Below are positions 10,158 to 35,070 of a stretch of 64,000 nt of DNA, piece after piece. Under the pieces are notes generated by a model that searched no databases, was not told the origin of the DNA, and saw only the letters and a program-made list of their open reading frames with translations. The DNA is taken from NCBI GenBank assembly GCA_963674745.2, contig CAXXDV010000001.1, positions 1,472,001-1,536,000 on the forward strand, read 5' to 3'. The stretch's first letter is position 1. The number at the start of each line of letters is the position of its first letter. Made by a program: the position numbers and the translations under genes. The DNA is from Desulfosudaceae bacterium (GTDB taxonomy: Bacteria > Desulfobacterota > Desulfobacteria > Desulfobacterales > Desulfosudaceae).

Positions 10158-10158
10158 G

Positions 10159-11319: not shown

Positions 11320-11334
11320 TGGGGCAAAAAAATA

Positions 11335-11372: not shown

Positions 11373-11384
11373 GGAGGTGATGAA

Positions 11385-12496: not shown

Positions 12497-12512
12497 ATTT
12501 TTGGCGCTTAAC

Positions 12513-12728
12513 GAGTCTGTAGGAAAAGTCTATTTTCGATAAATTTTATCTTTTTTCAGAAAAACACCTTCGTAGAATATATTTTATACTAAAACATAAA
12601 ATCCTTGCAAACCATCTATTTTAGATGGCTTCACAGAGATCATACAAAATCTTATATAACTTTCAGTTTTTCAAAAATTGGCGACAAAACCCTATGTTTT
12701 ACTCAAATTTTACTTTTTCTACAGCCTC
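12513..12728. mobile_element. 216-bp attC-targeting MITE-like element, locus 1
   Basis: TIRs GAGTCTGTAGGAAAAGT / ACTTTTTCTACAGCCTC; flanked by AAC and ATC. Confidence 0.85.
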
Positions 12729-12848
12729 ATCGTCGGAAGCCAGAGGCAGCCAGGGCTTTCTCGGACTGCCTTAATGATGATTAATGTTCATTTCCCCCAG
12801 GTTGCTCAAAATCCGACTGCCCTGGCTGTCCTTTCTGAGCTTCCTGGT

Positions 12849-13558
12849 GTGTGCCGGGCACGGCACATGTTCTTAAAAGTGAGCCAAGGCTATCATATAT
12901 TTGATAATTTTGGCAAGTCTTAGACCCAGCCTGATGGAGGCGAAGGGTGTAGCGGTAGTGCAACGGGGTGCCAGGGACGGTGCTTCGGGAGGAAGCCGCC
13001 CTGCTGCGGCAGGGTACCGCGAAGGTACGGGATGACGCACAGGAATCGAGTATAAGGCGCGCACGCCGGGACGAGCCTGCACCACAAGGCAAAGTCCTCT
13101 ATCCATCTTAAGGCGTGTCCGTAAACTTGGCATTTACGTACCGAAAGACACGTGCTTACCCCGGGAGATCTCTCCTGTGCCGTACAACGGCTGAGGGTCG
13201 GGTAACCGGCCCTGACCGCAGGGGAGAAGTCAGCAGAAGGCATAGTAGCCGGCGGAAACGAGCCGGGCCTCCCTTAAGCGGGAGAAGTATACCCGGAGGA
13301 CTCACCCCGGTGAAGGCCGGAACGGTGCCCGGACCGAATGGCACGGGTAAATGGTGGTGGCAAGTAAGGGAGTATCTCTTACGGGGATAATGCGGCAGCT
13401 GCCGAAATTCACGTAGCGAGCTTTCTCTGAAAACCCGGTGGAACTGGTGGGATAACTCACAGCCGGTTTCATCAGTACCAGCCGAACCGCCTTGGTACGT
13501 GATCCGTATGCCAGGTGGTGTGGGAGGGGGTAGCCGTGAGGCTACTCCCTATCCCAAT
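12849..13558 (+). ncRNA. ORF-less group IIC-attC intron, copy 2
   Basis: Same 710-bp element as 10610-11319 with few substitutions; removal restores GTTAAGCGGC matching GCCGCTTAAC. Confidence 0.93.
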
Positions 13559-14187
13559 TAAGCGGCATGTGGCTTTGGTGGTACGGGTACGCCCAGATGT
13601 CGTGCAGCTATTCGTGCCAAGCGACCGATGTTTTGGTTCGACGATAAGGAGACTTCCCGCAGCAGGGCTGTTGCAGTCTCCGAATTCCCAGAATGGTGAA
13701 GAATAGCAGCGAGAGAGACCCTCCTTCGGGGTGGTGTGAAGCAATCAAGGAGCCCAAGATTCCAGCGCTCAATGATCGAATGACGATCAGATAAATCGGA
13801 AAGGAATGGAAGGACGTTATTCACCAGGGAGGATTCTATCTCTTCCACAGCCTGTTCGAAACTGGACTCAGAGAGTGTCCACCAGTGATCGGTGCCATGC
13901 GGTTCAAGTACTCCAATTCGTGCACGGATCTCACATTCGGGCTCCGCGACAAACTCTGGTGATGCATCTGCGCCTTTTAAAGCCAGTGCAACTTCCGGGA
14001 TATAGACACCGATATTTATCGTGCACCTACCAGGAGGCCTTCTGCTGAGCTGCAGCTCGATTACATGAACGAGTTTCGCAGGAAGCGCGCGGTTGTAGGT
14101 GCGCCCTTTTCTGACAAACCCGTTACTTTGGAAGGTCCGCCCAAGCCGAGTCTGAAGCCGAGTTGCTATCTGTTGATGAGAACCCAT
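13558..14187 (-). CDS. DUF4304-like protein (cassette, visibly higher GC)
   Basis: GFVRKGRTY..VIELQLS..TINIGV..RARIG..DHWW..LPFL pattern. Confidence 0.7.
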   Translation of the reverse strand: MGSHQQIATRLQTRLGRTFQSNGFVRKGRTYNRALPAKLVHVIELQLSRRPPGRCTINIGVYIPEVALALKGADASPEFVAEPECEIRARIGVLEPHGTDHWWTLSESSFEQAVEEIESSLVNNVLPFLSDLSDRHSIIERWNLGLLDCFTPPRRRVSLAAILHHSGNSETATALLREVSLSSNQNIGRLARIAARHLGVPVPPKPHAA

Positions 14188-14343
14188 ATTTGTTCTGATT
14201 CCAACTCCTTCAGCCGCTTAACGTCCGCCACCACCGGCGAGCAGGGGATGCGGACTTCGCTAAAGTGAGTTCAACTCTAAATTACGCCAAAGCTAAAAAC
14301 AGCCCGCCCCTGCGAGTCAGCGTGGGTGGCGTTGTTAGAAACA

Positions 14344-14934
14344 TTATTTAAATCCTAATACCAAAACAACAAATTCCTTGTGATCTTCAAGCAGTTCTAT
14401 GAATGGAATAATATTTTGATCCTCGAATTTAAAAGGTAACCGGCGTTCGTAATTATTTTTTCTTGGAATTTCCATTGTTATACTTAGGAGCGTTGAATTT
14501 AATGGTTTATAAACCATGTCTGGCAAATTGATAGTTACTGAACTTTCAGCCAAATTAATCACTTTTGCTGTTTCCCAATTTATTAAAAACTCGGTACCAT
14601 AATTAAAACCTTTTGGAACATGAATATCTGTACTGTCGGCTGCAAAAACTGCGTATCCTAGGGGGTATTTATTTTTCAACTCATTTTCTTGTATTTCTTT
14701 ACGCGAAAGGTCTTGCTGGAAGTAATTGTTGATTGTTATTTGATTAGCTGTGATTCCGCCTTGTTGTTCTTTTGAGTTCACAATATTCTCAGCAATGAAA
14801 GCTTTAGGTTCTTTCATAGAGACTGTAGAATTATTCTCGCTCTTATTGGGCATAATATGCCAGCCATAGCCAGCCAGGACACCACCAAGAAGGATCAATA
14901 ACCCGCCAATTATTATGTAAGCCCAAGCATGCAT
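14344..14934 (-). CDS. Cassette protein with N-terminal TM anchor
   Basis: Fills cassette. Confidence 0.7.
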   Translation of the reverse strand: MHAWAYIIIGGLLILLGGVLAGYGWHIMPNKSENNSTVSMKEPKAFIAENIVNSKEQQGGITANQITINNYFQQDLSRKEIQENELKNKYPLGYAVFAADSTDIHVPKGFNYGTEFLINWETAKVINLAESSVTINLPDMVYKPLNSTLLSITMEIPRKNNYERRLPFKFEDQNIIPFIELLEDHKEFVVLVLGFK

Positions 14935-15075
14935 GATATTTTTATCCTACTCCGGTTTCTAACGTCTGCAGCCAAAGTAGCCAGGGCTTCCAGTGACTGC
15001 CTTTAAGATGGTTGATGTTCAATTTCCCCCGAATGTTCAAAAACCGAATGCCCTGGCTATCATTTGGGCTGCTTG

Positions 15076-15771
15076 GTTAAGTGCCCGCATTATTCTGAAA
15101 GACTTTAACGACAGCATGGGCAAATAAATTAAATTATTTTTTTTCTTTTTACGCCTTGTCCATCATGAACCTATGAAAACGGGCCGGTCTCTTTTCATCC
15201 GGACAAATATGGCGCATTATCATTCGGCAGCGCCAGTTCGAGATTACAATTTATCTTTACTGGACAAAAATATCAACTTGGTGACAATTACAATTTTGGC
15301 AACGAATATCGATTTCAGCCAAAATTCTTTTTTTATTTGTTTCCCGTACAGATTCAGTGCACTTAACGTCTGCAGCCAAAGTAGCCAGGGCTTCCAGTGA
15401 CTGACTTTAAGGTGGTTGATGTTCAATTTCCCCCGAATGATCAAAACCCTAATGCCCTGGCTATCATTTGGGCTGCTTGGTTAAGTGCCCGTATCATTCA
15501 GAAAGGCTTTAACGACAGCATGGACAAAATAATAAAATGATTTTTTCTTTTTACGACTTGCCCATCATGAACCTATGAAAACGGGCAGGTCACTTTTCAT
15601 CCGGACAAATAAAGGCGCATTATCATCTGGCCGCGCCAGTTCAAAAATACAATTTATCGTTACTGACCGAAAAATTCAACTTGGTGACAATTACCATTTT
15701 GGCAACGAATATCGTTTTCAGCCAAAATTCATTTTTTTATTTTTTCCCCGTAAAGAATTTGTGCACTTAAC
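15076..15771 (-). repeat. Gene-less cassette family A, copies 1-2 (bodies 15076-15367, 15480-15771)
   Basis: ~290-bp body bounded by GTTAAGTGC...GCACTTAAC; no conserved ORF. Confidence 0.85.
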
Positions 15772-15819
15772 GTCCGCCACCACCGGCGAGCAGGGTTTGC
15801 GGACTTTTTAAGGGTTAGT

Positions 15820-16407
15820 TCAACACCACACTATGCTAAAACTAAGGCAGGCCGCCCCTGCGAGTCCGTGTGAGTGGCGTTGTTGTGCAGCCGCATTAAC
15901 TTTTTTAAAAATTATACTATAGATTTCTATACCAATCGATTTGGCTTGGCTTTGTATGCTCTCTTTAATATTTTCGTACATATGATTTGAATAGTTGCAA
16001 TCGCTTTCCTGTCCCTCAGCGATTTGTGCAATCTTATCAGTTTCAATGTTCTTTAGCGCCTTTTGAAATTTATCTGAGAGACTATCTAAAACTATTTTTA
16101 TGTCTTTATCTCGAGTGGCATAATAAAAAGCCTTTGGCTCTTGGATTTTCCAGAGAATAGAAGCAGTATATTCAGGAAAACTGTTTAATTTTATCGGTAT
16201 TTGTTCAATTCTGCATACTTTAAATTCATGAACGTTTTCGGCAAAAGGTAATTTAAAATGAAGCCCGGGTTTAACAGGGCCTCTAACTATTTCTCCCTTT
16301 TGAGTAATGATAGCTTCACTACCTTCCATCACAGTGTAAACCGGTGAACCTGACCCACAAGCATAAAGAGTTAAGCACGGAATTAAGATTAATAATATTT
16401 TTCGCAT
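15820..16407 (-). CDS. SPFH/HflC-like lipoprotein (cassette; stop inside attC)
   Basis: LYAC lipobox; EAIITQKG..PGLHFKLPF; W.I.EP..FY. Confidence 0.7.
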   Translation of the reverse strand: MRKILLILIPCLTLYACGSGSPVYTVMEGSEAIITQKGEIVRGPVKPGLHFKLPFAENVHEFKVCRIEQIPIKLNSFPEYTASILWKIQEPKAFYYATRDKDIKIVLDSLSDKFQKALKNIETDKIAQIAEGQESDCNYSNHMYENIKESIQSQAKSIGIEIYSIIFKKVNAAAQQRHSHGLAGAACLSFSIVWC

Positions 16408-16544
16408 AGAATACCGTTTTATGCTGCACAACGTCCGCCACCACCTGCGAGCAGGGAATGCGGTCTTCGCTAAAGTGAGTTTAACACCAAACTACGCCAA
16501 AGCCAAAAACAGCCCACCCCTGCGAGTCTGTGTGAGTGGCGTTG

Positions 16545-16766
16545 TTATACCTTTTCTCTTTTTTTCTTTAAAGTCGCTAATGAATTCACTATTGCTGCTA
16601 CAAGAAAGACGCCGCTTAGAAACAGCAATATTGGACATGAAATCATGACGAATTTCTCAGCAGGTGAATTGGGTACGACAGAAATGGAGGAAATTACAAG
16701 AAAGGGAATAAAACAAAGGAAGAAACCCGCCCAAAAGGAATGCTGCTTATGTTTCCCTGATTCCAT
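16545..16766 (-). CDS. Small membrane protein (two-ORF cassette, duplicated at 49.6 kb)
   Basis: 2 TM helices; stop in R''. Confidence 0.6.
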   Translation of the reverse strand: MESGKHKQHSFWAGFFLCFIPFLVISSISVVPNSPAEKFVMISCPILLFLSGVFLVAAIVNSLATLKKKREKV

Positions 16767-16796
16767 ATATTAAACCTTTTCAAATGTATAAAACAT

Positions 16797-16973
16797 TCAT
16801 CCAAAACAAGATAACATTAAAACAACCCCATGACACGCAAAACCACCAATCAGGAATTTAATGGCGCTTGGCCTTTTCTGATCATTTATTTGTTCTAAAA
16901 GGACTTCTGCAATTCCAATAAATTCTAAAACTATTCCACAGACAGTCAGGATTATAACAAAAGGTATATCCAT
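16797..16973 (-). CDS. Small membrane peptide, 58 aa (MDIPFVIILTVCG...)
   Basis: Translated by hand; first ORF of the cassette; repeated at 49868-50044. Confidence 0.45.
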   Translation of the reverse strand: MDIPFVIILTVCGIVLEFIGIAEVLLEQINDQKRPSAIKFLIGGFACHGVVLMLSCFG

Positions 16974-17106
16974 ATTCTTTTAGGTCGGTATAACGTTTGC
17001 AGCCAAAGTAGCCAGGGCTTCCAGTGACTGACTTTAAGGTGGTTGACGTTCAATTTCCCCCGAATGTTCAAAACCCGAATGCCCTGGCTATCATTTGGGC
17101 TGCTTG

Positions 17107-17400
17107 GTTAAGTGCCCGCATTATTCAGAAAGACTTTAACGACAGCATGGGCAAATAAAATAAAATGATATTTTTCTTTTTACGCCTTGTCCATCATGAA
17201 CTTATGAAAACGGGTAGGTCTCTTTTCATCCGGACAAATAAAGGCGCATTATCATTTGGCCACGCCAGTTCGAAATTACAATTTATCTTTACTGGACAAA
17301 AATATCAACTTGGTGACAATTACCATTTTGGCAACGAATGGCGATTTCAGCCAAAATTCTTTTTTTTATTTTTTCCACGTACAGATTTAGTGCACTTAAC
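17107..17400 (-). repeat. Gene-less cassette family A, copy 3
   Basis: Same body. Confidence 0.85.
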
Positions 17401-17511
17401 GTCCACCGTCACTTGGGAGCAGGGGAAACGTGACTTTTGCAACGCCACGTTAACACCGAACCAGAATACATTAAAAGCAGCGCGCCCCTGCGAGTCAAGT
17501 GCATGGTGTTG

Positions 17512-17904
17512 TTAGGCAGCATTTCCTTTTTTAGAAGCCAAAACTCCGAGTCCGCCGATTAAGGCTACCAGACTCCAAACATAAGGCGCTGGAGTTTCCC
17601 ACATGACATTGCTGCCCCAGAGGCCGAGCCCTATTCCAAGGCAAGCAAAGCCTGCACTCATACCTGTGGCAACAACTGCCATCGCGACATGGCCTGGTCT
17701 GATAGATGCGTACACATACATAATGATAATGGCAGCAACGGATACTGAACCCACATGCCACGAGAAGTGATGTAACCAGATTACTTCATTAGGTATATCG
17801 GTCATGGAGAGGGGCGGTAGCACCATCGGTGCGCCAAGAAACTCATGTCCAACAACGCCAGCGAATGATAGTGCTGCTGCAATGCGAAAAAACCAGAATG
17901 ACAT
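17512..17904 (-). CDS. 4-TM cassette membrane protein
   Basis: GHEFLG and WHVGS motifs; AGGAG RBS. Confidence 0.75.
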   Translation of the reverse strand: MSFWFFRIAAALSFAGVVGHEFLGAPMVLPPLSMTDIPNEVIWLHHFSWHVGSVSVAAIIIMYVYASIRPGHVAMAVVATGMSAGFACLGIGLGLWGSNVMWETPAPYVWSLVALIGGLGVLASKKGNAA

Positions 17905-17934
17905 ATTACATACTCCTGCTGATTAATGCCTAAC

Positions 17935-18150
17935 GAGTCTGTAGGAAAAGTCTATTTTCGATAAATTTTATCTTTTTTCAGAAAAACACCTTCGTAGAAT
18001 ATATTTTATACTAAAACATAAAATCCTTGCAAACCATCTATTTTAGATGGCTTCACAGAGATCATACAAAATCTTATATAACTTTCAGGTTTTCAAAAAT
18101 TGGCGGCAAAACCCTATGTTTTACTCAAATTTTACTTTTTCTACAGCCTC
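17935..18150. mobile_element. 216-bp attC-targeting MITE-like element, locus 2
   Basis: AAC[GAGTC...GCCTC]AAC at attC crossover. Confidence 0.88.
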
Positions 18151-18265
18151 AACGTCCGCCACCACCGGCGAGCAGGGTTTGCGGACTTCTTTAAATGTCA
18201 GTTCAACACCACACTATGCCAAAACTAAGGCAGGGCGCCCCTGCGAGTCTGTGTGAGTGGCGTTG

Positions 18266-18601
18266 TTATAATCCATTTGTATTTATCATTTTTAAGCCCC
18301 CTACAATAAAAAGGATAAACAAAGAAGAAAATAGGGCCAAATAAAAAAATTGGTATCCTCTTAATATTTTGCAATATTTCAAAAGAGTAAGATTGTCTAT
18401 ATCAGTATATTGCTTTTTCCAAATGAATTTATGAAGTTTGTAAATAGTAGGCAGGGAATTGAACATAATATATATCTGCGGGCTCCCAATTGAAACCCAA
18501 GTATCATCATGTGACTGCCTCAGAATTGTGATTGTTTTCCATCTGAAGTATTCACCAAACAATAAAATAACTATCAAAATTATTATGATCAGATCTATCA
18601 T
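18266..18601 (-). CDS. Cassette membrane protein
   Basis: Fills cassette. Confidence 0.65.
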   Translation of the reverse strand: MIDLIIIILIVILLFGEYFRWKTITILRQSHDDTWVSIGSPQIYIMFNSLPTIYKLHKFIWKKQYTDIDNLTLLKYCKILRGYQFFYLALFSSLFILFIVGGLKMINTNGL

Positions 18602-18746
18602 TGATTTGGATTATAACGGCTGCCGCCAATGGGAGCCAGGGCTTCCACTGACTTGCCTTAATATTGGTTAAAGTTTGTTTTCCCCCGAATGGTCAAAATC
18701 CGGGTGCCCTGGCTCTCCTTTGGGCGGCATGGTTATGCGGGTTTTT

Positions 18747-19061
18747 TTATTCACCATTTTTGATTGCCTGCTTAATAATTGGAGCGACTGTATCTGGGCT
18801 TATCCTCCGGTCTTTGCAATATTTAGACTGCAACCAGACTGATAATTGCTTCTGTCCTTTACTTGCATTGCAACCTCGACAGCAAAGAACAATATTTTCT
18901 CTTGTAATAATTTTCGCATCATTGATTATATGTTCCCAACTTGCAGCAGATTTTGCAGATATCTTTGCTGGGGTAAATTCAACGCCGCAATAAACACACT
19001 TTTTATCCCTTTCCCTTACTTCCTTTTCAAGCCACTCTGGAATATTCCAATTATTTGCCAT
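18747..19061 (-). CDS. HNH endonuclease-like protein (cassette)
   Basis: VRERDKKCVYCG...WEHII...NIVLCCRGCNASKG. Confidence 0.85.
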   Translation of the reverse strand: MANNWNIPEWLEKEVRERDKKCVYCGVEFTPAKISAKSAASWEHIINDAKIITRENIVLCCRGCNASKGQKQLSVWLQSKYCKDRRISPDTVAPIIKQAIKNGE

Positions 19062-19218
19062 GAGAGATCGATGTATTGTTACGCATAACGTCTTCAGCCA
19101 AAGGGCGCCAGGGCTTCCTCCGACTGACTTAAAGATGGTTAAAATTTCAACTCAGCATGGCTGTTCAAAACCCGGGTGCCCTGGCGATCCTATTGCGCTG
19201 AATTGTTCGGTGCCGATT

Positions 19219-19629
19219 TTAGTTTCCGAAAAACAACTCTTTTGTCTCATAAAGCTTAGAACTATGTTTCCATCCAGACTCATGAGGTGGATCAGGGAAA
19301 GGGGCCTTTGCATAACCACAAGATTCCTTGAAATTAAATACAGCATGTGGAACTTGATTGATCAATAAGGCTGCTGCAGAAAAATCCCTCGTCCATATAA
19401 TTTTAATCATGGATGGTTTATCTCGGTCTATTACATCCTTAACATTGTATATATGTAGAGCATCTACGAAAAATTGACCAGAGAGAGAATAATCTCGCGC
19501 ATAAAAATAGCCTGTCTCACCATCATCTTCAAAGACAACTCCACGAATCCCATCAGATGTATCCGATTCAAGGACGATTTCTTCCCCGACCACGATTTCT
19601 TCTTCTACACCCAAAAATGGTGGCTTCAT
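19219..19629 (-). CDS. DUF2251-like protein (cassette; second copy at 40306)
   Basis: VVFEDDGETGYFYA...DALHIYNV...LLIN..PHAVFNF. Confidence 0.8.
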   Translation of the reverse strand: MKPPFLGVEEEIVVGEEIVLESDTSDGIRGVVFEDDGETGYFYARDYSLSGQFFVDALHIYNVKDVIDRDKPSMIKIIWTRDFSAAALLINQVPHAVFNFKESCGYAKAPFPDPPHESGWKHSSKLYETKELFFGN

Positions 19630-19757
19630 ATTTTATGCACCGAACGTCTGCAGCCAAAGTAGCCAGGGCTTCCAGTGACTGACTTTAAGGTGGTTGATGT
19701 TCAATTTCCCCCGAATGTTCAAAAGCCGAATGCCCTGGCTATCATTTGGGCTGCTTG

Positions 19758-20050
19758 GTTAAGTGCCCGCATTATTCAGAAAGACTTTAACGACAGCATG
19801 GGCAAATAAATAAAATTAATTTTTTTCTTTTTACGCCTTGTCCATCATGAACTTATAAAAACGGGCAGGTCTCTTTTCATCCGGACAAATAAAGGCGCAT
19901 TATCATCTGGCCGCGCCAGTTCGAAATTACAATTTATCTTTACTGGACAAAAATATCAACTTGGTGACAATTATAATTTTGGCAACGAATGTCGAATTCA
20001 GCCAAAATTCTTTTTTTATTTTTTTCTCGTACAAATTCAGTGCACTTAAC
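19758..20050 (-). repeat. Gene-less cassette family A, copy 4
   Basis: Same body. Confidence 0.85.
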
Positions 20051-20923
20051 GAGTCTGTAGGAAAAGTCTATTTTCGATAAATTTTATCTTTTTTCAGAAA
20101 AACACCTTCGTAGAATATATTTTATACTAAAACATAAAATCCTTGCAAACCATCTATTTTAGATGGCTTCACAGAGATCATACAAAATCTTATATAACTT
20201 TCAGGTTTTCAAAAATTGGCGGCAAAACCCTATGTTTTACTCAAATTTTACTTTTTCTACAGCCTCAACGAGTCTGTAGGAAAAGTCTATTTTCGATAAA
20301 TTTTATCTTTTTTCAGAAAAACACCTTCGTAGAATATATTTTATACTAAAACATAAAATCCTTGCAAACCATCTATTTTAGATGGCTTCACAGAGATCAT
20401 ACAAAATCTTATATAACTTTCAGGTTTTCAAAAATTGGCGGCAAAACCCTATGTTTTACTCAAATTTTACTTTTTCTACAGCCTCAACGAGTCTGTAGGA
20501 AAAGTCTATTTTCGATAAATTTTATCTTTTTTCAGAAAAACACCTTCGTAGAATATATTTTATACTAAAACATAAAATCCTTGCAAACCATCTATTTTAG
20601 ATGGCTTCACAGAGATCATACAAAATCTTATATAACTTTCAGGTTTTCAAAAATTGGCGGCAAAACCCTATGTTTTACTCAAATTTTACTTTTTCTACAG
20701 CCTCAACGAGTCTGTAGGAAAAGTCTATTTTCGATAAATTTTATCTTTTTTCAGAAAAACACCTTCGTAGAATATATTTTATACTAAAACATAAAATCCT
20801 TGCAAACCATCTATTTTAGATGGCTTCACAGAGATCATACAAAATCTTATATAACTTTCAGGTTTTCAAAAATTGGCGGCAAAACCCTATGTTTTACTCA
20901 AATTTTACTTTTTCTACAGCCTC
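20051..20923. mobile_element. Four head-to-tail copies of the 216-bp element (locus 3; period 219 bp)
   Basis: Copies at 20051, 20270, 20489, 20708, each separated by one AAC. Confidence 0.88.
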
Positions 20924-20965
20924 AACGTCTGAAGCCAGGGGCAGCCAGGGCTACTCCTGACCAGA

Positions 20966-21391
20966 TTATGGTTTTAAATTTTCGACTCCCCTCGGTTGCT
21001 CAACAAAGCCTGCCCTGGCTGTCCCTTTGCGCTTCTTGGTTATAAGGCTGATTATTATGGATAACGTGAATGTAATAACTGTGGCACATAATGCCAAAAA
21101 ACACACAAAGAAAAAATATGAATCCCAAAAAGGAGTTCCCAGAATTGGCAACCAAGTTAAAGCACAGGAATAAAACACAATTAAAGATATCATAAAATAT
21201 TTTGTATAATTTGATTTATGAAGATGCTTTAAACTCCATAATATGCCGAATACAAAGCCGATAATTCCAAAGAAGAAAATTGCCAAAATATAATGGTTTC
21301 CACTTTTCAAAACCGCGGATGACAAACCAGATAATGCGTTTAATTCATAATAAATAAATGGAATATATATTGTTGCCAGAAACCAACGCAT
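20966..21391 (-). CDS. 4-TM cassette membrane protein (stop inside attC)
   Basis: Start adjusted to first ATG inside cassette. Confidence 0.65.
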   Translation of the reverse strand: MRWFLATIYIPFIYYELNALSGLSSAVLKSGNHYILAIFFFGIIGFVFGILWSLKHLHKSNYTKYFMISLIVFYSCALTWLPILGTPFWDSYFFFVCFLALCATVITFTLSIIISLITKKRKGTARAGFVEQPRGVENLKP

Positions 21392-21520
21392 TTCGAAAAG
21401 CCTTATAACGTCCGCCACCACCGGCGCGCAGGGTTTGCGGACTTCGCTAAAGTAAGTTAAACACCAAATTACGCCAAAACAAAGGCCGCCCGCCCCTGCG
21501 AGTCCGGGTGAGTGGCGTTG

Positions 21521-25673: not shown

Positions 25674-25848
25674 AGAGTTCCTTGAAGAAAGATAACGGTT
25701 GCAGCCAAAGGGCGCCAGGGCTTCTTCTGACTGTCTTAAAAATGGTTTATGTTCAAGTTCCATCGAAAATTCAAAACCCGTGTGCCCTGGCGGTCCTTTT
25801 GGGCTGCATGGTTATACGAATAATTATAGATTGGTTCTATGACTTTCA

Positions 25849-26118: not shown

Positions 26119-26266
26119 AAAGGTTTCTTTTTCTCTTTCTTGTTCAACGTATAACGTCTACCGTCACTTGGGAGCAGGGGAAAAGTGACTTTTGCAAAGC
26201 CACGTAAACACCGAACCACGATACTGTAAAAGCAGCACGCCCCTGCGAGTCAAGTGCATGGTATTG

Positions 26267-26767
26267 TTAGCCTTTACTATTTATATTATTAACGAAAATT
26301 CCAAATATTTTTGTTTCAGTTCCTATGAGATCTGGGATTGATGAGTAATTCATTTCTTTTGTCCCATTACTCTTTGTACAGTACTTTTCATTTAACATGA
26401 AAGATATAACCTTTGGCAAAGAATCTACATGTACAACTCTTTGATAAAAACTGATTGGGTCAGAAATTGTAAAATTCATATCAGCTCGAAATGGTTTTGC
26501 TCTCGGAGGGCACCCAAGAAAATTTATTTGAACGATGATTTGTCCGCTTGGATATCTGACGACCTGATCGGCATTACCTAGCTTAAAATGATATCCTTGG
26601 GTCTTTATTGGGCCTTTTATTATTTTTCCAAAACGAGTAACAATAATTTGCTCACCTGGTTTAATTACGTACACAGATTCATATGCAAATTGGGCCGCCA
26701 AACCAATAATTGCCAATATAATTATTGGGGCTTTTACTTTTTGTGTATATTTGTCCGGTAGCTGCAT
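26267..26767 (-). CDS. SPFH/HflC-like protein (cassette)
   Basis: SVYVIKPGEQIIVTRFGK...GYHFK...ISDPISFY. Confidence 0.7.
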   Translation of the reverse strand: MQLPDKYTQKVKAPIIILAIIGLAAQFAYESVYVIKPGEQIIVTRFGKIIKGPIKTQGYHFKLGNADQVVRYPSGQIIVQINFLGCPPRAKPFRADMNFTISDPISFYQRVVHVDSLPKVISFMLNEKYCTKSNGTKEMNYSSIPDLIGTETKIFGIFVNNINSKG

Positions 26768-26914
26768 TTTTATGTAAGGCTAACGTCGGCCGCCAATGGG
26801 AGCCAGGGCTTCCACTGTCTTGCCTTAAAAGTGATTAAAGTTCGTTTTCCTCCAAATGTTCAAAAACCGAATGCCCTGGCTCTCCTTTGGGCGGCCTTGT
26901 TCGCTGCAATATTT

Positions 26915-27319
26915 TTATTGATTGTTATTTAGTTTTTCAAGAGCTTCTGATACACGGGAATATCTTGGAATATTCATAGATTCCACAAGATTCTTCAGCT
27001 CTTCATTATTATCTGAGTATTCCCAATAATTTGAATTAAAACGTTTAAGTATTGTTTCGGCTGTTTTATAATCTCCGCTTTCTATTAATTTTTCGACATG
27101 CGACGTAACAGAAGTCACTAATTCTCGATGAAAATATCTCTCGCTTGCTTCCAGCTTCTCATTTACTTGATTAGTCCAGAAAATACATGTGATTGCAAGT
27201 ATGGTGAAAGCAAAATAACGACAAAATTTAGCCCATTTCTTAAACTTAATTATATCCGAAACTATAAAGAGGATAAACGCTATTAAAAATGGGAATGGAG
27301 ACGATATAAATTCTTGCAT
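26915..27319 (-). CDS. Cassette membrane protein
   Basis: Fills cassette. Confidence 0.7.
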   Translation of the reverse strand: MQEFISSPFPFLIAFILFIVSDIIKFKKWAKFCRYFAFTILAITCIFWTNQVNEKLEASERYFHRELVTSVTSHVEKLIESGDYKTAETILKRFNSNYWEYSDNNEELKNLVESMNIPRYSRVSEALEKLNNNQ

Positions 27320-27448
27320 AGCTTATTCCAGCGAACGTCTGCAGCCAAAGTAGCCAGGGCTTCCAGTGACTGCCTTTAAGATGGTTGATGTTCAATTTCC
27401 CCCGAAAGTGCAAAAGCCGAATGCCCTGGCTATCATTTGGGCTGCTTG

Positions 27449-27742
27449 GTTAAGTGCCCGCATTATTGAGAAAGACTTTAACGACAGCATGGGCAAATAA
27501 AATAAAATGATATTTTTCTTTTTACGCCTTGTCCATCATGAACTTATGAAATCGGGTAGGTCTCTTTTCATCCGGACAAATAAAGGCGCATTATCATTTG
27601 GCCGCGCCAGTTCGAAATTACAATTTATCTTTACTGGCCGAAAAATTCAACTTGGTGACAATTACCATTTTGGCAATGAATGTCGTTTTCAGCCAAAATT
27701 CTTTTTTTTATTTTTTTCCCGTACAGATTCAGTGCACTTAAC
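27449..27742 (-). repeat. Gene-less cassette family A, copy 5
   Basis: Same body. Confidence 0.85.
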
Positions 27743-27854
27743 GTCCGCCACCACCGGCGAGCAGGGCTTGCGGACTTCGCTAAAGTAAAGTTCAACTCCA
27801 AATAACGCCAAAGCCAAAACAGCCCGCCCCTGCGAGTCTGTGTGAGTGGCGTTG

Positions 27855-28331
27855 TTATATTTTGCCTGTATTAATTTTATCTATAGCACGATCAAATTTG
27901 ACCACCAATTCATTTAAAGTATCAACTGGACTCTTAGTAAAGGCTTTATCAGTAGGGTATAATGGCGCTACCCATTCGCATTCTTTGCAATTTTCGGCTA
28001 TTGCAATCATTATGGTCAAAGACCCTTTCCAAGATTCAATTATTTCATGCGGGTCACAGTTTGGAAAAACTTGCATCAATTTTTCCATCATTTTCTTTGT
28101 TGGGCTTTGAAGCAAATTTATCACTTCAAGAGAATATTTAATCACATCTTTCGAGGCAGACGTCCTTGGCATTCCGACACAAATCGAAAAGCGCCAAAAC
28201 CATTCCGCACATTCTTCTGAAATATCCGTGAAATATTCAGAATAGCTCAACAGGTCAAGTGAAGATGCATATTCGGGAAGAACGTGCATTTCAAATATGA
28301 TTAATCTTGGATATTCTTTATATTGCCACAT
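27855..28331 (-). CDS. MWQYKEYP protein (copy 2)
   Basis: Identical repeat. Confidence 0.75.
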   Translation of the reverse strand: MWQYKEYPRLIIFEMHVLPEYASSLDLLSYSEYFTDISEECAEWFWRFSICVGMPRTSASKDVIKYSLEVINLLQSPTKKMMEKLMQVFPNCDPHEIIESWKGSLTIMIAIAENCKECEWVAPLYPTDKAFTKSPVDTLNELVVKFDRAIDKINTGKI

Positions 28332-28460
28332 ATCTTATAAAATATAACGTCTGCAGCCAAAGTAGCCAGGGCTTCCAGTGACTGACTTTAAGGTGGTTGA
28401 TGTTCAATTTCCCCCGAATGTTCAAAAGCCGAATGCCCTGGCTATCATTTGGGCTGCTTG

Positions 28461-29154
28461 GTTAAGTGCCCGCATTATTGAGAAAGACTTTAACGACAGC
28501 ATGGGCAAATAAATTAAAATGATATTTTTCTTTTTACGCCTTGTCCATCATGAACTTATGAAAACGGGTAGGTCTCTTTTCATCCGGACAAATAAAGGCG
28601 CAAAATCAAACAGTCCCGCCAGATCAAAATACAGCTTATCTTTACTGATTGAAAATATCAATCTGGTGACAATTTCCATAGTGGCAACGAAGATCATTTT
28701 TCGTCAAAATTCTTTTTTTATTTTTTCCCGTACAGATTAAGTGCACTTAACGTCTGCAGCCAAAGTAGCCAGGGCTTCCAGTGACTGACTTTAAGGTGGT
28801 TGATGTTCAATTTCCCCCGAATGTTCAAAAGCCGAATGCCCTGGCTATCATTTGGGCTGCTTGGTTAAGTGCCCGCATTATTCAGAAAGACTTAAACGAC
28901 AGCATGGGCAAATAAAATAAAATGATATTTTTCTTTTTACGCCTTGTCCATCATGAACTTATGAAAACGGGTAGGTCTCTTTTCATCCGGACAAATAAAG
29001 GCTCAAAATCAAACAGTCCCGCCAGATCAAAATACAGCTTATCTTTACTGATTGAAAATATCAATCTGGTGACAATTTCCATAGTGGCAACGAAGATCAT
29101 TTTTCGTCAAAATTCTTTTTTTATTTTTTCCCGTACAGATTAAGTGCACTTAAC
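28461..29154 (-). repeat. Gene-less cassette family A, copies 6-7 (28461-28751, 28864-29154)
   Basis: Subtype b bodies in tandem. Confidence 0.85.
28519..28661 (-). promoter_or_regulatory. Two candidate sigma70 promoters in a family A cassette (example copy)
   Basis: TTGATA-N17-TAAGCT (28661-28633) and TGGACA-N17-TATCAT (28547-28519), both in array direction. Confidence 0.6.
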
Positions 29155-29277
29155 GTCTGAAGCCAATGGCAGCCAGGGCTTCCACCAGCTTAGTTAAAGA
29201 TTTTGGTTATTCAATTCCCCCGACTTTTCAAAACCCGAGTGCCCTGGCTGTCCACTTGAGCTTCTTGGTTATGTTTC

Positions 29278-29658
29278 TTAATATTTTGATTTAATTGGAA
29301 ATTTAAAAGAAACTGTATTCGTATAATTTGCAAATTCTTCTTTATTTGCAATATATTTTTTAATATCATTTTTAGTTTTGAAAACTATAATATCGTTTTC
29401 ATGCTGAAAAGAATAATCAGCGGTAAGGTCATGAACACTTATAAGAAAGCACTGCTTATCCATATTCATTTTAGTCAGCAGTTCCTCGCCTAATGATTTC
29501 TTCTTAAATGCAATATAAGATCCACCGGTGCTGGTTTTCATTTTTACAAGGATAAGAGGCAAATCATGGCCTTTATCATTTTTGAGTCCATGACTGCATA
29601 CAAAAAACAATTCATTTCTTTTTTTAACAAAATTTTGAAAGATATCTTTTATCATCAT
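29278..29658 (-). CDS. Cassette hypothetical protein
   Basis: Fills cassette. Confidence 0.65.
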   Translation of the reverse strand: MMIKDIFQNFVKKRNELFFVCSHGLKNDKGHDLPLILVKMKTSTGGSYIAFKKKSLGEELLTKMNMDKQCFLISVHDLTADYSFQHENDIIVFKTKNDIKKYIANKEEFANYTNTVSFKFPIKSKY

Positions 29659-29782
29659 GAAACATAACGTCTCAAGCCAATGGCAGCCAGGGCTTCCACT
29701 GTCTTGGTTTATGATTTGGGTTGTTCAGTTCCCCCAATATTTCAAAACCCGAGTGCCCTGGCTGTCCACTTGAGCTTGATTG

Positions 29783-30802
29783 TTAGGCCTTCGAAGTTTT
29801 ATTAATTAAGATCAAAGTATTACACTTAGGGCATTTTTCCGGAATAAACCGTCTTAACAAAAATGATTTATTACAATTAGGACATTTTAATAAAGAAAAT
29901 CGAGCGATTAACCATAGTATTGGTAAAAGTAAAAATATAATACCAGCCATTACAGTGCCTATTGTGCTTGTTGGAGAAACAATCTTGCGCCCAAATAATA
30001 TAAATCCAAAAAATATTGCCACAAATAAAGCTGTTAGTAATTTATACAATGAGTATTTTTTTTTGAACTCTTTCAAAGCATTCACACTATCGGTTATTTT
30101 TGTTGATGCTACATTTTTCTTTTCAGTCACATTGATACTTTTAGGTTTTTCAGTGTCAGATAAACGAATAACCATTTTATGATGTTCGTGATACTTTAGA
30201 AATTTTTTAAGTGGGGTCAGCTCTTTAATTGGGTCTAAAAGATAAGGTCTTTGGCCAAAGTTGTCTTGATAGTCTGTTGTTTCACCCATCAGAACATGCT
30301 TTTTAAATAGGTTGATTTCCTCTGCAGTGATTACAAACGGCTCAAAAGGTCTTATTCTCATAATGTTGTCTAAAAGGCCCTGATGAGTAGAATTGCATTC
30401 TTCACAATGAATTTCCCAATATTTAGCGGAAATAAAATTATCATCTTTAAATACAAAACTCGTTGTAGCGTATTTTGTTTCATCCTCATTATTTATTTCT
30501 GGTGGGAATTCCGCTGCATGGTCGCAAAATTTATATATCCTGTGCCCCTGATGTTTAACCAAAAAAGCTTGGAATGCTTCAACTTCAAAGGTTAACATTT
30601 TAAAAGCTTCTAATCCTATATAAATAAATCCAAAATTCTTTTCCCAAGGACTTGTAGAATCTTTATCCCATTTTGAAGGGCAGGCCTCTTCATCTGTAGA
30701 TATGCTAGGATAGCCGATAAATCCAAAGTCCCCGACCTCAGGGCCTTCTTCAAGGCAGTCTAAACAAATTGCTCCAAAAAGTACCCCCATCATATCCTCC
30801 AA
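29783..30802 (-). CDS. Cassette protein with several CxxC pairs and C-terminal TM plus Zn ribbon
   Basis: CLDC, CEEC, CPNC, CPKC; largest cassette ORF. Confidence 0.75.
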   Translation of the reverse strand: MEDMMGVLFGAICLDCLEEGPEVGDFGFIGYPSISTDEEACPSKWDKDSTSPWEKNFGFIYIGLEAFKMLTFEVEAFQAFLVKHQGHRIYKFCDHAAEFPPEINNEDETKYATTSFVFKDDNFISAKYWEIHCEECNSTHQGLLDNIMRIRPFEPFVITAEEINLFKKHVLMGETTDYQDNFGQRPYLLDPIKELTPLKKFLKYHEHHKMVIRLSDTEKPKSINVTEKKNVASTKITDSVNALKEFKKKYSLYKLLTALFVAIFFGFILFGRKIVSPTSTIGTVMAGIIFLLLPILWLIARFSLLKCPNCNKSFLLRRFIPEKCPKCNTLILINKTSKA

Positions 30803-30818
30803 TATGTTTTTGCCTAAC

Positions 30819-31034
30819 GAGTCTGTAGGAAAAGTCTATTTTCGATAAATTTTATCTTTTTTCAGAAAAACACCTTCGTAGAATATATTTTATACTAAAA
30901 CATAAAATCCTTGCAAACCATCTATTTTAGATGGCTTCACAGAGATCATACAAAATCTTATATAACTTTCAGGTTTTCAAAAATTGGCGGCAAAACCCTA
31001 TGTTTTACTCAAATTTTACTTTTTCTACAGCCTC
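30819..31034. mobile_element. 216-bp attC-targeting MITE-like element, locus 4
   Basis: AAC[...]AAC at attC crossover. Confidence 0.88.
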
Positions 31035-31152
31035 AACGGCGGCCGCCAGTGGGCGCCAGGGCTTCCACTGACTTGCCTTAAAGATATTTAATATTCAATT
31101 TCCCTCGACTTTTCAAAAGCCGAGTGCCCTGGCGATCCATTGCGCGGCCTTG

Positions 31153-31716
31153 TTAAACCTTGTTTTTTCTATATTCTCTAAATTCATTTACGAATTTTAG
31201 CCTTGCCTGATCTTGGACGATAGAAACCCCACTGATTTTATTGAAGACGGTTTTTTCATCCGAGTCGAATAGTGCCCAGACTAATCCCAAAAGGCCAATT
31301 ATCAGATAAGTACAGCTTACCATCATTAAGCCTTCTTGGAGCAAGGCTGTTTTCCATGACAAAGATTCTTCGGTGGGCTTTACCGCTTTTAACCCGAATA
31401 ATTTCATTCCCCAAGTTTGGGATTTAGATTTTAAGGGGTACAGAAAGGCCAGAAACCAGCCTAAAATGGTTGGAACGGTTAATAATGAAACAAAAAATAA
31501 TATTTGATAAAGGGCTTTATAAGAAAGGCTTATCCATGAATAATTTACTGCCATTGTTTCAGGCCACAAATTTTCGAGAAAAATATTCAGTGCGAAAAAA
31601 AGAAGTATGATCAGAGTGACAAATAGTGAGCAAAGAAATCCTGTCATAGCATACCCACAAATTCGGAATACGATTTCCCCATTTTGAACAGTCACGTTTG
31701 TTTGTTCAGTATTCAT
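31153..31716 (-). CDS. RDD-family membrane protein (cassette)
   Basis: QTWGMKLFGLK.V...WALFD..KT..NKISG. Confidence 0.75.
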   Translation of the reverse strand: MNTEQTNVTVQNGEIVFRICGYAMTGFLCSLFVTLIILLFFALNIFLENLWPETMAVNYSWISLSYKALYQILFFVSLLTVPTILGWFLAFLYPLKSKSQTWGMKLFGLKAVKPTEESLSWKTALLQEGLMMVSCTYLIIGLLGLVWALFDSDEKTVFNKISGVSIVQDQARLKFVNEFREYRKNKV

Positions 31717-31791
31717 TCTGTAGGTTTAACGGCTTCAGCCAAAGGGCGCCAGGGCTTACTCTGACTGACTTAAAGTCGGTTAATATTCAAT

Positions 31792-32421
31792 TCAGCACGG
31801 TTGTTCAAAATCCGAGTGCCCTGGCGGTCCTATTGAGCTGGATTGTTGGGTGAGTTCTATATCAAAATTTGGCTTCCAGTCTTTCAATGAACAATTACTC
31901 CTAGAGATAGGGTAGTTCCTATAAGCCCATTCGATAGAAGCGCCATGTTGTTCATATAGTCTATTTTCCCATATACCGCCTCTCAGTACATCAATAAGGT
32001 TGTCCGTAATATGTTTCTCAATATTAGGGAGGCTTTTAGAAAAATTTTGAACACCAAGTATAAAAAAGGAGGAAGGTCGTTCTTCAATAGTTTTTCCCGC
32101 AAAAGTGTCCGAAAAAGTCAGGTGAATGTTACATAGGAAGCTTGGAATTGTTTCTTTAGTCCAATCCTTAGAAGACGTATAAATTCCAATTTCTTTCAAG
32201 TGATCATTTTCCGCTTTCTTAACATATTCATCATATGTATGACTCTTATGTATTTTCCTTCTATATTTTTCCACATCAAATTCATGGTAAGCAATAGCCT
32301 CAGTCTTTAATGGCATATCTTTGAAGAGACTCACGGAATCTCTAGCGTACTCAATTACTTTTTTAAAGGGTGCAGCGGTATACCATGCGACACAATAATA
32401 TTTTGTATCTGAATATCCCAT
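31792..32421 (-). CDS. Cassette hypothetical protein (stop inside attC)
   Basis: Fills cassette. Confidence 0.7.
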   Translation of the reverse strand: MGYSDTKYYCVAWYTAAPFKKVIEYARDSVSLFKDMPLKTEAIAYHEFDVEKYRRKIHKSHTYDEYVKKAENDHLKEIGIYTSSKDWTKETIPSFLCNIHLTFSDTFAGKTIEERPSSFFILGVQNFSKSLPNIEKHITDNLIDVLRGGIWENRLYEQHGASIEWAYRNYPISRSNCSLKDWKPNFDIELTQQSSSIGPPGHSDFEQPC

Positions 32422-32435
32422 TACAATTTACACCC

Positions 32436-32553
32436 AACGTCCACGGTGTGGGGCCGCAAGGGGAGGGAGCCACCCGCAGAAAACTCGTTTTTGAATTATG
32501 TGGCAAGAGCCAAAACCGGACGCCCCTTGCGGTCCCTTACCAACGTGTTGTTA
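32436..32553 (-). repeat. Divergent singleton attC
   Basis: AACGTCCACGGTGTGGGGCCGCAAGGGG...CCCCTTGCGGTCCCTTACCAACGTGTTGTTA. Confidence 0.8.
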
Positions 32554-32557
32554 TATT

Positions 32558-33070
32558 TTAATAGTGGCCTTCTTCTTTGGCCGTTACAATTCGTATCTCA
32601 AACGAGTCATAAAGTTCCTGCGGAAATTCTCTTCTAATCGATACCTTAAAAGGGACTTTTTCTTTTGATGGTAGGACAAAACTGTAATTTTCCTCCTGTT
32701 CGGTATCAATTATATTTTTATCCTTGTCAAAGAAAATCATTTCAAAATTTGGTTTTTCCCAATTTAGATCGCTATTATTTTCAATCATTCCTAAAATGAC
32801 CACTGTTTGCCCGCATTTGGATTCACCGAACTCCATAGTACAATCCTTTAAAACAATTTCACTTCTTACCGGAGCAAAATCCTGACCAGGGCCAAGTGTA
32901 TCAATGAAGAATTGTTGGAATAGAAGGTAAAGAACAAGCAATATCGCTACTGTAAAAAATGGATGCCAAATCACCAGGCTAATTTTATTTTGCCAGTGTT
33001 TACAAAAAGGACATTTTTTAGCCTGAACATCTATTTCACTACAGCATATCAAACATTTTTTCTTATCCAT
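32558..33070 (-). CDS. Zn-ribbon plus TM plus FxLYD-like domain protein (cassette)
   Basis: KCLIC..AKKCPFC; G.IENNS..FFDKD..IID..L.SKEK.PF. Confidence 0.7.
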   Translation of the reverse strand: MDKKKCLICCSEIDVQAKKCPFCKHWQNKISLVIWHPFFTVAILLVLYLLFQQFFIDTLGPGQDFAPVRSEIVLKDCTMEFGESKCGQTVVILGMIENNSDLNWEKPNFEMIFFDKDKNIIDTEQEENYSFVLPSKEKVPFKVSIRREFPQELYDSFEIRIVTAKEEGHY

Positions 33071-33207
33071 TCAGAAATATCCTTCATAAAATATAACGTC
33101 CACCGTCACTTGGGAGCAGGGAAAGGTGACTTTTGCAAAGCCACGTTAACACCGAACCTCGATAATTGAAAAGCAGCCCGCCCCTGCGAGTCAAGTGCAT
33201 GGTGTTG

Positions 33208-33528
33208 TTAGGTTCCGTTTTTATTGATTAATTCATTACAAAACTCGATAGTATCAGTTTTGCCTTTCGATTGCAGCCTCGATAATAAAATTGGGCCTTT
33301 GATGAAACGAAAATATAGAAAAATGGTGGTTGTCACCAATGGCCCCAAGAGTAGCGAAAGCAAAAGAATCTCTTTCCAACTTGTCGTTTTATGAGATTCG
33401 GATGGTAAAAGGGAAAACGTAGCGAAAACCAATATAGCTATAGCGCTAATGGTAAAGCATAAGGTGAGAAACCTACGCCATGTCCATCCAAAGATGATTC
33501 TCGCAAAAAATTTTTCCGATTCTTCCAT
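33208..33528 (-). CDS. Cassette membrane protein
   Basis: Fills cassette. Confidence 0.65.
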   Translation of the reverse strand: MEESEKFFARIIFGWTWRRFLTLCFTISAIAILVFATFSLLPSESHKTTSWKEILLLSLLLGPLVTTTIFLYFRFIKGPILLSRLQSKGKTDTIEFCNELINKNGT

Positions 33529-33707
33529 TCTGGAACCTAACGTCGGCCGCCAATGGGAGCCAGGGCTTCCACTGACTTGCCTTAAAGGTGGTTACTGTTC
33601 AATTCCCCCCGGTTTTTCAAAACCCGAATGCCCTGGCTATCCTTTGCGCGGCTTGGTTATCTTTAAAATATTATATTTTCGGGCAGCCGCTTCTGGAAGA
33701 ATTTTCT

Positions 33708-33992
33708 CTAAAGTTCATATCGTTCATCACACTCATCATTTAACTCGGAATACCTTTTTCTGAGATTTTCCAAACGGCTTTCCAAATCAATTCTTTCGAC
33801 ACCTTTCAAAGGCGGATCTGAATTGAGCTTATCTTGAATGAGCTCCATTTCTTCATAGGTTGCCCGGGCTTTTTGGCAACTTTCTGGCTCTGGTAAACCA
33901 AAAATAATTTCCGTCATAAAACCACATGATGGAAGAGTCAGCAGAGAAATCATAACCAGGACTTTCAATGCTTTTATCAAGTTGCCCCTCAT
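33708..33992 (-). CDS. Small lipoprotein (copy 1 of 2)
   Basis: LPSC lipobox; identical at 38740. Confidence 0.7.
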   Translation of the reverse strand: MRGNLIKALKVLVMISLLTLPSCGFMTEIIFGLPEPESCQKARATYEEMELIQDKLNSDPPLKGVERIDLESRLENLRKRYSELNDECDERYEL

Positions 33993-34126
33993 ATATGTTG
34001 AAAGATAACGTCCGCCACCACCGGCGAGCAGGGGATGCGGACTTCTTTAAATGTTAGTTCAACACCACACTATGCAAAAACTAAGGCAGGGCGCCCCTGC
34101 GAGTCTGTGTGAGTGGATTTGTTAGA

Positions 34127-34708
34127 TCATCTCCATATTTGATTCTGAATTAATGTGAATACCCACAGAGGGGTATAACTGACAATGTTCGCAGCTAGGA
34201 TCGTTTTATGAATTTTTTTCGGATCAACCCTTATAAGTACTGAAGAACGCTTGGCAAGAAATTCTTCAACAGAGACACTTAAAGCAAAAGCAATTACAGT
34301 CCAGAAGAGCATAGCACATGTCATAAAGATATACCACGATCCTGGTTGCTTAGCTGGATACATCGCTGGGGGGAAACTCCAATAAAAGTTCCCCATAGCG
34401 GCAAGAGATTGTGGTACATCTATTCCGGAGATAGCAACAAGATAGATTATCCAGTAAATCATAAAGAGCATGACAGGAAAACCAATGAGAGTTGTAACTA
34501 CATTCCATTTGAGGGAATTGATAAATGACTTTTTCCAGCCTATCCGCAGGGTGTATTGGATCACAAGACATTCAAGCAGAATTAATCCTGGAAAATAAAG
34601 AATAATTTCAATCCCAACAGTAGGCGCAATAGGAACACCAACGTTAGCGCATGCTTCTACGGGAAATGCAAACAAAGCAAAAAATATTATGGTCCATTTT
34701 CTTTTCAT
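34127..34708 (-). CDS. Cassette membrane protein
   Basis: ANVGVP..LILLE..NVVTTLIGFP..ANIVSY. Confidence 0.75.
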   Translation of the reverse strand: MKRKWTIIFFALFAFPVEACANVGVPIAPTVGIEIILYFPGLILLECLVIQYTLRIGWKKSFINSLKWNVVTTLIGFPVMLFMIYWIIYLVAISGIDVPQSLAAMGNFYWSFPPAMYPAKQPGSWYIFMTCAMLFWTVIAFALSVSVEEFLAKRSSVLIRVDPKKIHKTILAANIVSYTPLWVFTLIQNQIWR

Positions 34709-34716
34709 GATCTAAC

Positions 34717-34932
34717 GAGTCTGTAGGAAAAGTCTATTTTCGATAAATTTTATCTTTTTTCAGAAAAACACCTTCGTAGAATATATTTTATACTAAAACA
34801 TAAAATCCTTGCAAACCATCTATTTTAGATGGCTTCACAGAGATCATACAAAATCTTATATAACTTTCAGGTTTTCAAAAATTGGCGGCAAAACCCTATG
34901 TTTTACTCAAATTTTACTTTTTCTACAGCCTC
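34717..34932. mobile_element. 216-bp attC-targeting MITE-like element, locus 5
   Basis: AAC[...]AAC at attC crossover. Confidence 0.88.
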
Positions 34933-35070
34933 AACGTCTCCAGCCAGAGGGCGCCAGGGATTCCACTGACTGTCTTAAAGTTGGTGAATGTTAAATCCCC
35001 CCGGTTGTCCAACAAAGCCCGCCCTGGCGGTCCTGCTGGGCTGGATTGTTATGATTTAGGATATTATTTT

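Follow-up and report, generated by a model that had tools for sequence, protein, structure and literature searches.

In the 64-kb window analysed here (64,000 nucleotides of a Desulfosudaceae bacterium genome, contig CAXXDV010000001.1), copies of a short element without genes lie within a large array of integron gene cassettes. The 216-bp unit is a miniature inverted-repeat transposable element (MITE): it has inverted ends and a 3-bp target duplication but contains neither an open reading frame (ORF) nor an attC. Its location is strictly the R′ end of attC at all seven loci that it occupies in the genome. Very probably, the unit is a MITE of an IS1182-family lineage whose DDE transposase inserts at the GTT/AAC triplet of attC R′ and duplicates 3 bp. 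It appears to add a new member to a widespread IS1182 lineage that homes to attC and is apparently undescribed in print.

Structure and copies of the element

A repeat search identified eight copies at five loci in the window, in a single orientation throughout and with start-to-start spacings of 5422, 2116, 219, 219, 219, 10111 and 3898. Seven of the eight are identical, and the copy at 12513 carries two substitutions. Across the whole genome (5.55 Mb in 3 contigs) there are 10 copies at 7 loci, 9 of them identical; the two beyond the window (C1:903006 and C1:2275092) are flanked by ..TAAC on the left and by AAC followed by an attC on the right. The copies in the window are as follows.

12513..12728, plus strand: MITE copy 1, with 2 substitutions; left AAC at 12510-12512, right ATC at 12729-12731
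17935..18150, plus strand: MITE copy 2, with AAC on both sides
20051..20923, plus strand: four tandem MITE copies (20051-20266, 20270-20485, 20489-20704, 20708-20923), with a single AAC between neighbours
30819..31034, plus strand: MITE copy 7, with AAC on both sides; the next cassette ORF (29783-30802, minus strand) starts 17 nt past its left end
34717..34932, plus strand: MITE copy 8, with AAC on both sides; the next cassette ORF is 34127-34708 (minus strand)

The ends, GAGTCTGTAGGAAAAGT and ACTTTTTCTACAGCCTC, form 17-bp imperfect terminal inverted repeats that are complementary at 15 of 17 positions. The left flank reads ..YTAAC at every locus in the window, and the right flank is AAC followed by G at four loci and ATC (12729-12731) at the first. 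In the tandem array, the period is 219 bp and neighbouring copies have one AAC in common. Both the repeat search and the sequence agree with an earlier note, made from the letters of the window, that had described eight near-identical copies at five loci in one orientation, with 17-bp imperfect repeats and AAC flanks (one of them ATC).

The element is short and non-coding, with a G+C content of 29% and a longest stop-to-stop frame of 45 codons. A search of positions 19900-21100 against Rfam gave no family at its gathering score and no intron. The best Rfam match to the element region, a model of a plant-virus untranslated region, scored 30.5 bits against a threshold of 43 and was taken as chance. 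A consensus scan for promoters gave four candidate sites where 1.4 would be expected; two lie within the element and point towards the next cassette, although in DNA of 29% G+C such sites are not evidence of promoters. In public sequencing run X1, which probably stems from the source sample, the element assembles as a separate contig of 223 nt at a depth of 116, compared with 13 and 10 for its flanks, a depth that is not a copy number. Contigs from runs X3, X4 and X7 span flanking cassette sequence and none covers or bridges the element, which is not evidence of empty sites.

Cassettes without an ORF exist, and the element is bounded by G/TT-type crossover junctions (AAC..AAC) on both sides, as cassettes are. 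It might thus be read as an ordinary ORF-less cassette with a highly degenerate attC of its own, but it lacks the 3′ attC of a cassette: an nhmmer attC model, built from 17 distinct attC sites of the window and 127 positions long, gave no match in the interior of the element or at the tandem junctions. Furthermore, when a 354-nt stretch holding the element and an attC was folded as a single strand (z-score -4.2), the element ends paired with each other and the neighbouring attC formed a separate hairpin. The fold of the element is thus an end-to-end pairing of its terminal repeats, not an R″-L″..L′-R′ hairpin at a 3′ end. Since transposase-bearing versions also exist in other genomes, this reading is extremely unlikely.

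Insertion at the R′ end of attC

At all seven loci, the match to the attC model begins 0-3 bases from the right end of the element, at model positions 4-7 of 127, so the insertion lies at the R′ end, which is the cassette boundary. The R″ end is used at none of the seven. In the part of the window from about 8 to 60 kb, almost every long ORF is on the minus strand; the cassettes are therefore minus-strand cassettes, and the plus strand displays the bottom strand of attC. The attC sites that adjoin the copies in the window are listed below.

12731..12848, plus strand: attC adjoining copy 1, degenerate, with ATC for AAC and GTG for GTT (bottom strand shown on the plus strand)
18150..18270, plus strand: attC adjoining copy 2, of the GTCCGCCACC family
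20923..21044, plus strand: attC adjoining the tandem array, from the nhmmer model
31034..31156, plus strand: attC adjoining copy 7, from the nhmmer model; it folds as a hairpin separate from the MITE
34932..35053, plus strand: attC adjoining copy 8, from the nhmmer model

The difference between the AAC and ATC flanks of copy 1 may be due to later mutation or to exchange between copies. Of the seven occupied attC sites, one is a member of the GTCCGCCACC family; the other six are G(T/G)C..GCCA..CCAGGG sites. A listing of insertion sites across the genome (10 copies, 7 loci) placed every one at an attC and found no copy elsewhere.

Insertion leaves attC intact, and the element precedes the ORF of the next cassette. 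The nhmmer matches that abut the element, together with the separate fold of the attC, support the claim that the attC hairpin is preserved, and the position before the next ORF supports the claim that the element becomes a 5′ leader. The alignment to the attC model extends one base into the element. Behind the duplicated GTT, the tip GAGGC of the element gives GTT-G-AGGC, which is one base off a displaced core GTTAGGC.

Of the 2242 occurrences of the hexamer AACGTC in the genome, only 181 are at attC R′ ends, so the location of all seven loci at attC is not due to chance (p ~2e-8). This value takes the most permissive motif and counts every locus as AACGTC, the actual right flanks being AACGTC at five of the seven, AACGGC at one and ATCGTC at one. 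The wider motif AACG[GT]C fits six of the seven loci (p ~1.4e-11). Since AACGTC lies mostly away from attC ends, a short local motif cannot account for the targeting. The earlier note had proposed that the fold is read rather than the sequence. The part of this that stands is the insufficiency of a 6-base local motif; what is read may be the hairpin or a longer bipartite sequence formed by the R′ and L′ boxes, and the target across the family is the attC R′ consensus (see below).

Target duplication and empty sites

The cassette to the left of the tandem array belongs to a repeated family with 26 junction matches in the genome, 18 of which were displayed. In 18 of the 18, the conserved sequence of the family stops at ..gtgcacttAAC; what follows is a differing attC in 17 paralogues and, in one, non-attC sequence beside an intI gene. 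Accordingly, 17 of the 18 paralogous junctions read ..gtgcacttAAC followed by G(T/G)C-attC and contain AAC once, whereas at the filled site the element has an AAC on either side. One AAC at empty junctions and two at the filled one indicate a 3-bp target duplication, as the earlier note had proposed in one of its two readings. No orthologous empty site was found: a genome of the same genus (G002) has attC families in common with this one (74-91% identity) but not these cassettes, and a further genome that is 71% complete (G001) gave no match.

The same junctions bear on whether the copies spread with larger segments, through cassette duplication or unequal crossing-over, and not by movement of the element. 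Cassettes are heavily duplicated here, as the 26 junction matches of a single family illustrate, and the array of four could expand by unequal crossing-over once two copies exist. However, the left flanks of all seven loci are mutually different; on the attC side, only those at C1:903006 and C1:2275092 begin alike, and these diverge within ~15 bases. The element is missing from paralogues of the cassette that adjoins the tandem array, and related elements occupy the same target in unrelated genomes. Spread by segment duplication is very unlikely.

Related elements in other genomes

One genome per species (185,579 species, 596 Gb) was scanned with a pattern that merges the two ends, GAGKCTGTAGRAAAAGT. 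At least 121 stretches were found, with 122 matches listed, and ~280 chance matches would be expected in 596 Gb, so a good share of the matches must have arisen by chance. Among the 122 matches listed, 41 are preceded by AAC and 32 by GTT, which together make 60% compared with ~3% expected (2/64 triplets); the remaining 49 look like ordinary coding sequence. The lineages represented among the matches listed include Nitrospirota, Gamma- and Betaproteobacteria, Thermodesulfobacteriota, Gemmatimonadota, Binatia and Chloroflexota. At least 27 of the elements are complete, with both ends and an identical triplet on each side: these are MITEs of 98-335 bp, many of them 157-160 bp, and six elements of 1760-1842 bp.

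Attachment sites of cassettes follow the GTTRRRY rule at the core. The flanks of the matches listed (38 distinct upstream, 41 downstream) give the consensus C (79%), GTT, A (90%), G (66%), G (51%), C (63%), so the family-wide target is the canonical attC R′ core, C-GTT-AGGC. The attC-side flank starts with AACG in 24 of the 27 complete elements among the matches listed. A longer end pattern searched in metagenomes gave eight matches, all eight flanked by GTT, four of which are complete elements of 216-217 bp. In a sample taken evenly from the phylum of the host, AAC followed by the end was found in 10 of 401 genomes, including this one, and a reversed control pattern in none.

Eight MITE lineages of 216-221 bp are conserved in their inverted ends only, and their interiors have nothing in common. 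Such a pattern would be expected of transposase binding sites and speaks against any conserved role for the interior. A BLAST search of the element against all retrieved loci matched only 20-44 terminal bases. The element itself was found in none of 60 related genomes, where only AT-rich fragments of up to 36 nt matched. The sample of the host's phylum contained elements of 137, 463 and 922 bp; none of the four loci examined there has a frame for a transposase.

The ~922-bp element (L181) has the left end and AAC flank in common with the element described here, and the same left end occurs in L178, L179, L180 and L182. These five loci come from five genomes of one family in the host's phylum, and L178-L181 contain no transposase frame. 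The ~922-bp element is possibly a decayed or cargo-bearing derivative.

Transposases of the full-length relatives

Two of the six elements of 1760-1842 bp are copies in one Nitrospirota genome; the others are from Mangrovitalea sediminis, Marinobacter algicola (L101, 1842 bp) and two proteobacterial metagenome-assembled genomes. Each of the six contains one ORF of 509-539 aa. Family models were run on two of the six ORFs. Against NCBIfam NF033551 (IS1182 family transposase; cut-off 270), L070 scored 274.9 bits and L101 268.3 bits, one just above and one just below the cut-off; both also matched the Pfam families DDE_Tnp_1_6, DUF772 and DDE_Tnp_1. The assignment to the IS1182 family is based on these matches, at about the cut-off of NF033551, and on the three Pfam domains. 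The 216-bp element shares its ends and its flanking triplet with these transposase-encoding elements. This supports the proposal of a non-autonomous element with IS5/IS1182-like ends, as the same ends bound elements with IS1182 transposases in other genomes. The suggestion that an autonomous partner be sought had a divided outcome, with none in the element's own genome and six full-length relatives in others.

In sequence databases, transposases of this clade are named only as generic transposases. The lineage is nearly absent from a plasmid collection, in which the best matches, from Pseudoalteromonas and Catenovulum replicons, have 41-44% identity; one of these has a related end flanked by ..ctctAAC. 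Identity between the transposases of the lineage and most plasmid-borne IS1182 transposases is at most 26%. Near-absence from plasmids may be the reason why clinical integron work has not met the clade.

The full-length relatives also bear on an alternative offered in the earlier note, namely that the unit is an attC-less mini-cassette moved by the integron integrase, IntI. A 219-bp circle (..GACTC-GTT-GAGGC..) would act as a double-stranded attI-like or secondary site and recombine with a folded attC. The insertion point is indeed the IntI crossover triplet, the orientation relative to attC is the same at all seven loci, and three genes of the genome score above the TIGR02249 cut-off for intI, whereas no cognate transposase is present. 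The same AAC..AAC junctions would be expected, and serial integration would give tandem repeats with one AAC between them.

Core sites of tyrosine recombinases, however, have a spacer, and here the inverted repeat reaches GTT directly, leaving no room for one. The element and its tandem junctions have no attC match, and among the eight MITE lineages of 216-221 bp it is only the inverted ends that are conserved. Nor does movement by IntI account for the presence of the same ends on 1.8-kb elements whose sole gene encodes a DDE transposase, in phyla whose attC sites differ greatly. Since these elements have GTT/AAC flanks in an attC core, a transposase is a far likelier agent of movement than IntI; the mini-cassette alternative is disfavoured, and we consider it improbable.

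Proposed mechanism

It is proposed that the 216-bp unit, which has no genes, arose from an insertion sequence by deletion. A DDE transposase of the IS1182 lineage would cut with a 3-bp stagger at the R′ triplet GTT (AAC on the opposite strand), where the integron integrase joins cassettes. The AAC beside the attC body would thereby be regenerated and the same attC could be hit again, giving head-to-tail arrays with one AAC between copies. The attC hairpin would remain untouched, and the element would become the 5′ leader of the next cassette. Regeneration of the site next to the attC body would explain both the tandem array of this genome and a tandem pair in another (L029). We infer that a transposase supplied in trans, now absent or represented by a distant relative still resident, moved the element, that repeated insertion built the tandem array, and, in the same way, how attC is recognised.

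A more specific version is tentative and, in our estimate, rather less probable than not. Here, the lineage would be a structure-guided DDE transposon that reads the folded or cruciform attC and not a sequence. The tips of the element (G+AGGC) and the duplicated GTT would rebuild an R′-like core so that attC stays usable by IntI, and the element would spread as the leader of the next cassette through transposase and integrase together.

Several observations weigh against insertion by an IS1182-lineage transposase at attC. The genome contains no cognate autonomous partner and no other pair of inverted ends at up to 3 mismatches; a looser scan for inverted pairs returned no partner and mostly noise. 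Three resident IS1182-family transposase genes were considered as the partner and rejected, as their elements have different ends. Two of the encoded transposases (C3:898631 and C3:2545600) are 30% identical to the Marinobacter one, and the third (C1:1416218) has no match at E up to 0.01. Nine of the ten copies are identical, which implies recent movement, yet no cognate transposase is present in the genome. The element is oriented the same way at all seven loci, but its full-length relatives are found both ways round: in five of six, the transposase gene is co-directional with the GTT strand, and in L079 it is opposite.

The attC nature of the flanks beyond this genome, also among the points of difficulty, is only partly shown. 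A first automated hairpin rule required AAC to be paired with GTT in the minimum-energy structure; 5 of 30 real flanks and 20 of 221 controls passed, and the rule was too strict for use. A strict rule passed 8 of 30 foreign flanks compared with 9 of 273 controls, and a looser rule 8 of 30 compared with 16 of 221. Judged by eye, about two-thirds of the foreign flanks have a hairpin closed by GTTnnnn within 45-110 nt, and about one-third are unclassifiable. Two 1811-bp transposase-bearing copies in one Nitrospirota genome (L060 and L106) sit in a short palindrome, GTGGGC..GTT..GCCCAC, with the triplet near its centre, and not in a recognisable attC; their flanks are paralogous. The lineage may also use other hairpins. 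Lastly, the flank triplets differ at one locus here (AAC/ATC) and in the relatives L029, L051, L069 and L132.

A resident IS1182-family element of this genome is present in two copies (L149, C3:2545600-2546952; L150, C3:898631-899983), which score 402 and 398 bits. Its ends read ..GRAAGGCTnnACAGGCTGTCC, and the sequences on either side of L149 are inverted relative to each other, as would follow from insertion into a palindrome.

Comparison with known systems

IS1272 of Staphylococcus offers a precedent within the IS1182 family: it is reported to target inverted-repeat sequences with the potential to form stem-loop structures, and to replace the target repeat without a duplication (PMC5678879). 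The resident element L149 likewise has inverted sequences on its two sides. The attC-homing lineage, in contrast, keeps the attC hairpin, duplicates 3 bp and uses one fixed attC triplet.

The IS1111-attC group (ISPa21 and ISPst6, of the IS110/IS1111 family) also consists of insertion sequences that home to a fixed position in attC. Its members encode a DEDD transposase (PMC11187229) and insert near the 5′ end of attC, antisense to the cassettes (PMC3001079). The relatives of the present element carry a DDE IS1182 transposase, its insertion is at the 3′ R′ triplet, and no IS110-type gene is involved.

Group IIC-attC introns, such as S.ma.I2, are attC-specific retroelements with a ribozyme and a reverse transcriptase. 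They insert into the bottom strand near the 5′ end of attC, antisense to the cassettes and between a gene and its attC, and can supply the following cassette with a new leader or promoter (PMC3001079). The present element differs in having inverted ends and a target duplication, and has neither an ORF nor an Rfam intron. The contention that the known attC-homing elements (IS1111-attC and IIC-attC introns) insert elsewhere in attC thus accords with the same source (PMC3001079).

The element resembles bacterial MITEs, among them Correia elements and integron-flanking MITEs, in its small size, lack of coding sequence, inverted ends, target duplication and numerous near-identical copies. To our knowledge, integron-associated MITEs flank whole integrons rather than target attC. 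Literature searches found no attC-targeting MITE and nothing linking IS1182 to attC, in agreement with the earlier statement that no description was known; ISfinder was not compared.

The cassette array and resident recombinases

The attC model finds 237 sites in 14 clusters across the genome, 87 of them in the window (8919-59325), where they define the following feature.

8919..59325, minus strand: cassette array with 87 attC matches; cassettes read on the minus strand

No integrase gene was found among the 15 ORFs scanned in the window, and all three intI genes of the genome lie outside it. The array of the window is, therefore, an attC cluster without an integrase of its own. The intI genes adjoin three attC arrays, at C1:2117407, C3:27977 and C3:2348261.

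A cassette of ~403 bp occurs at 28346-29152 of the window and at ~25 other places in the genome, amounting to at least 26 paralogous copies, some in tandem. It contains only small frames, of 73 aa (plus strand) and 49 aa (minus strand), with no known function. Separately, four near-identical tyrosine-recombinase-like frames (C1:1739981, C1:2102784, C1:2282749 and C3:2332314) score ~86 bits against the intI model. Each has a second part behind a TAA stop, and they lie in or beside attC clusters, the one at C1:2102784 clearly inside.

Implications

Two kinds of attC-homing element have been described, both of which insert near the 5′ end of the site. The lineage proposed here would add a third, unrelated kind, with a DDE transposase and entry at the integrase crossover, and would provide an example of a DDE enzyme aimed at a recombination hairpin. 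Insertion of the element could alter the expression or mobility of the cassette behind it. In the annotation of integrons, such insertions would be silently counted within cassettes. If the structure-guided reading is true, some of the non-coding or long-leader cassettes in surveys would be these elements.

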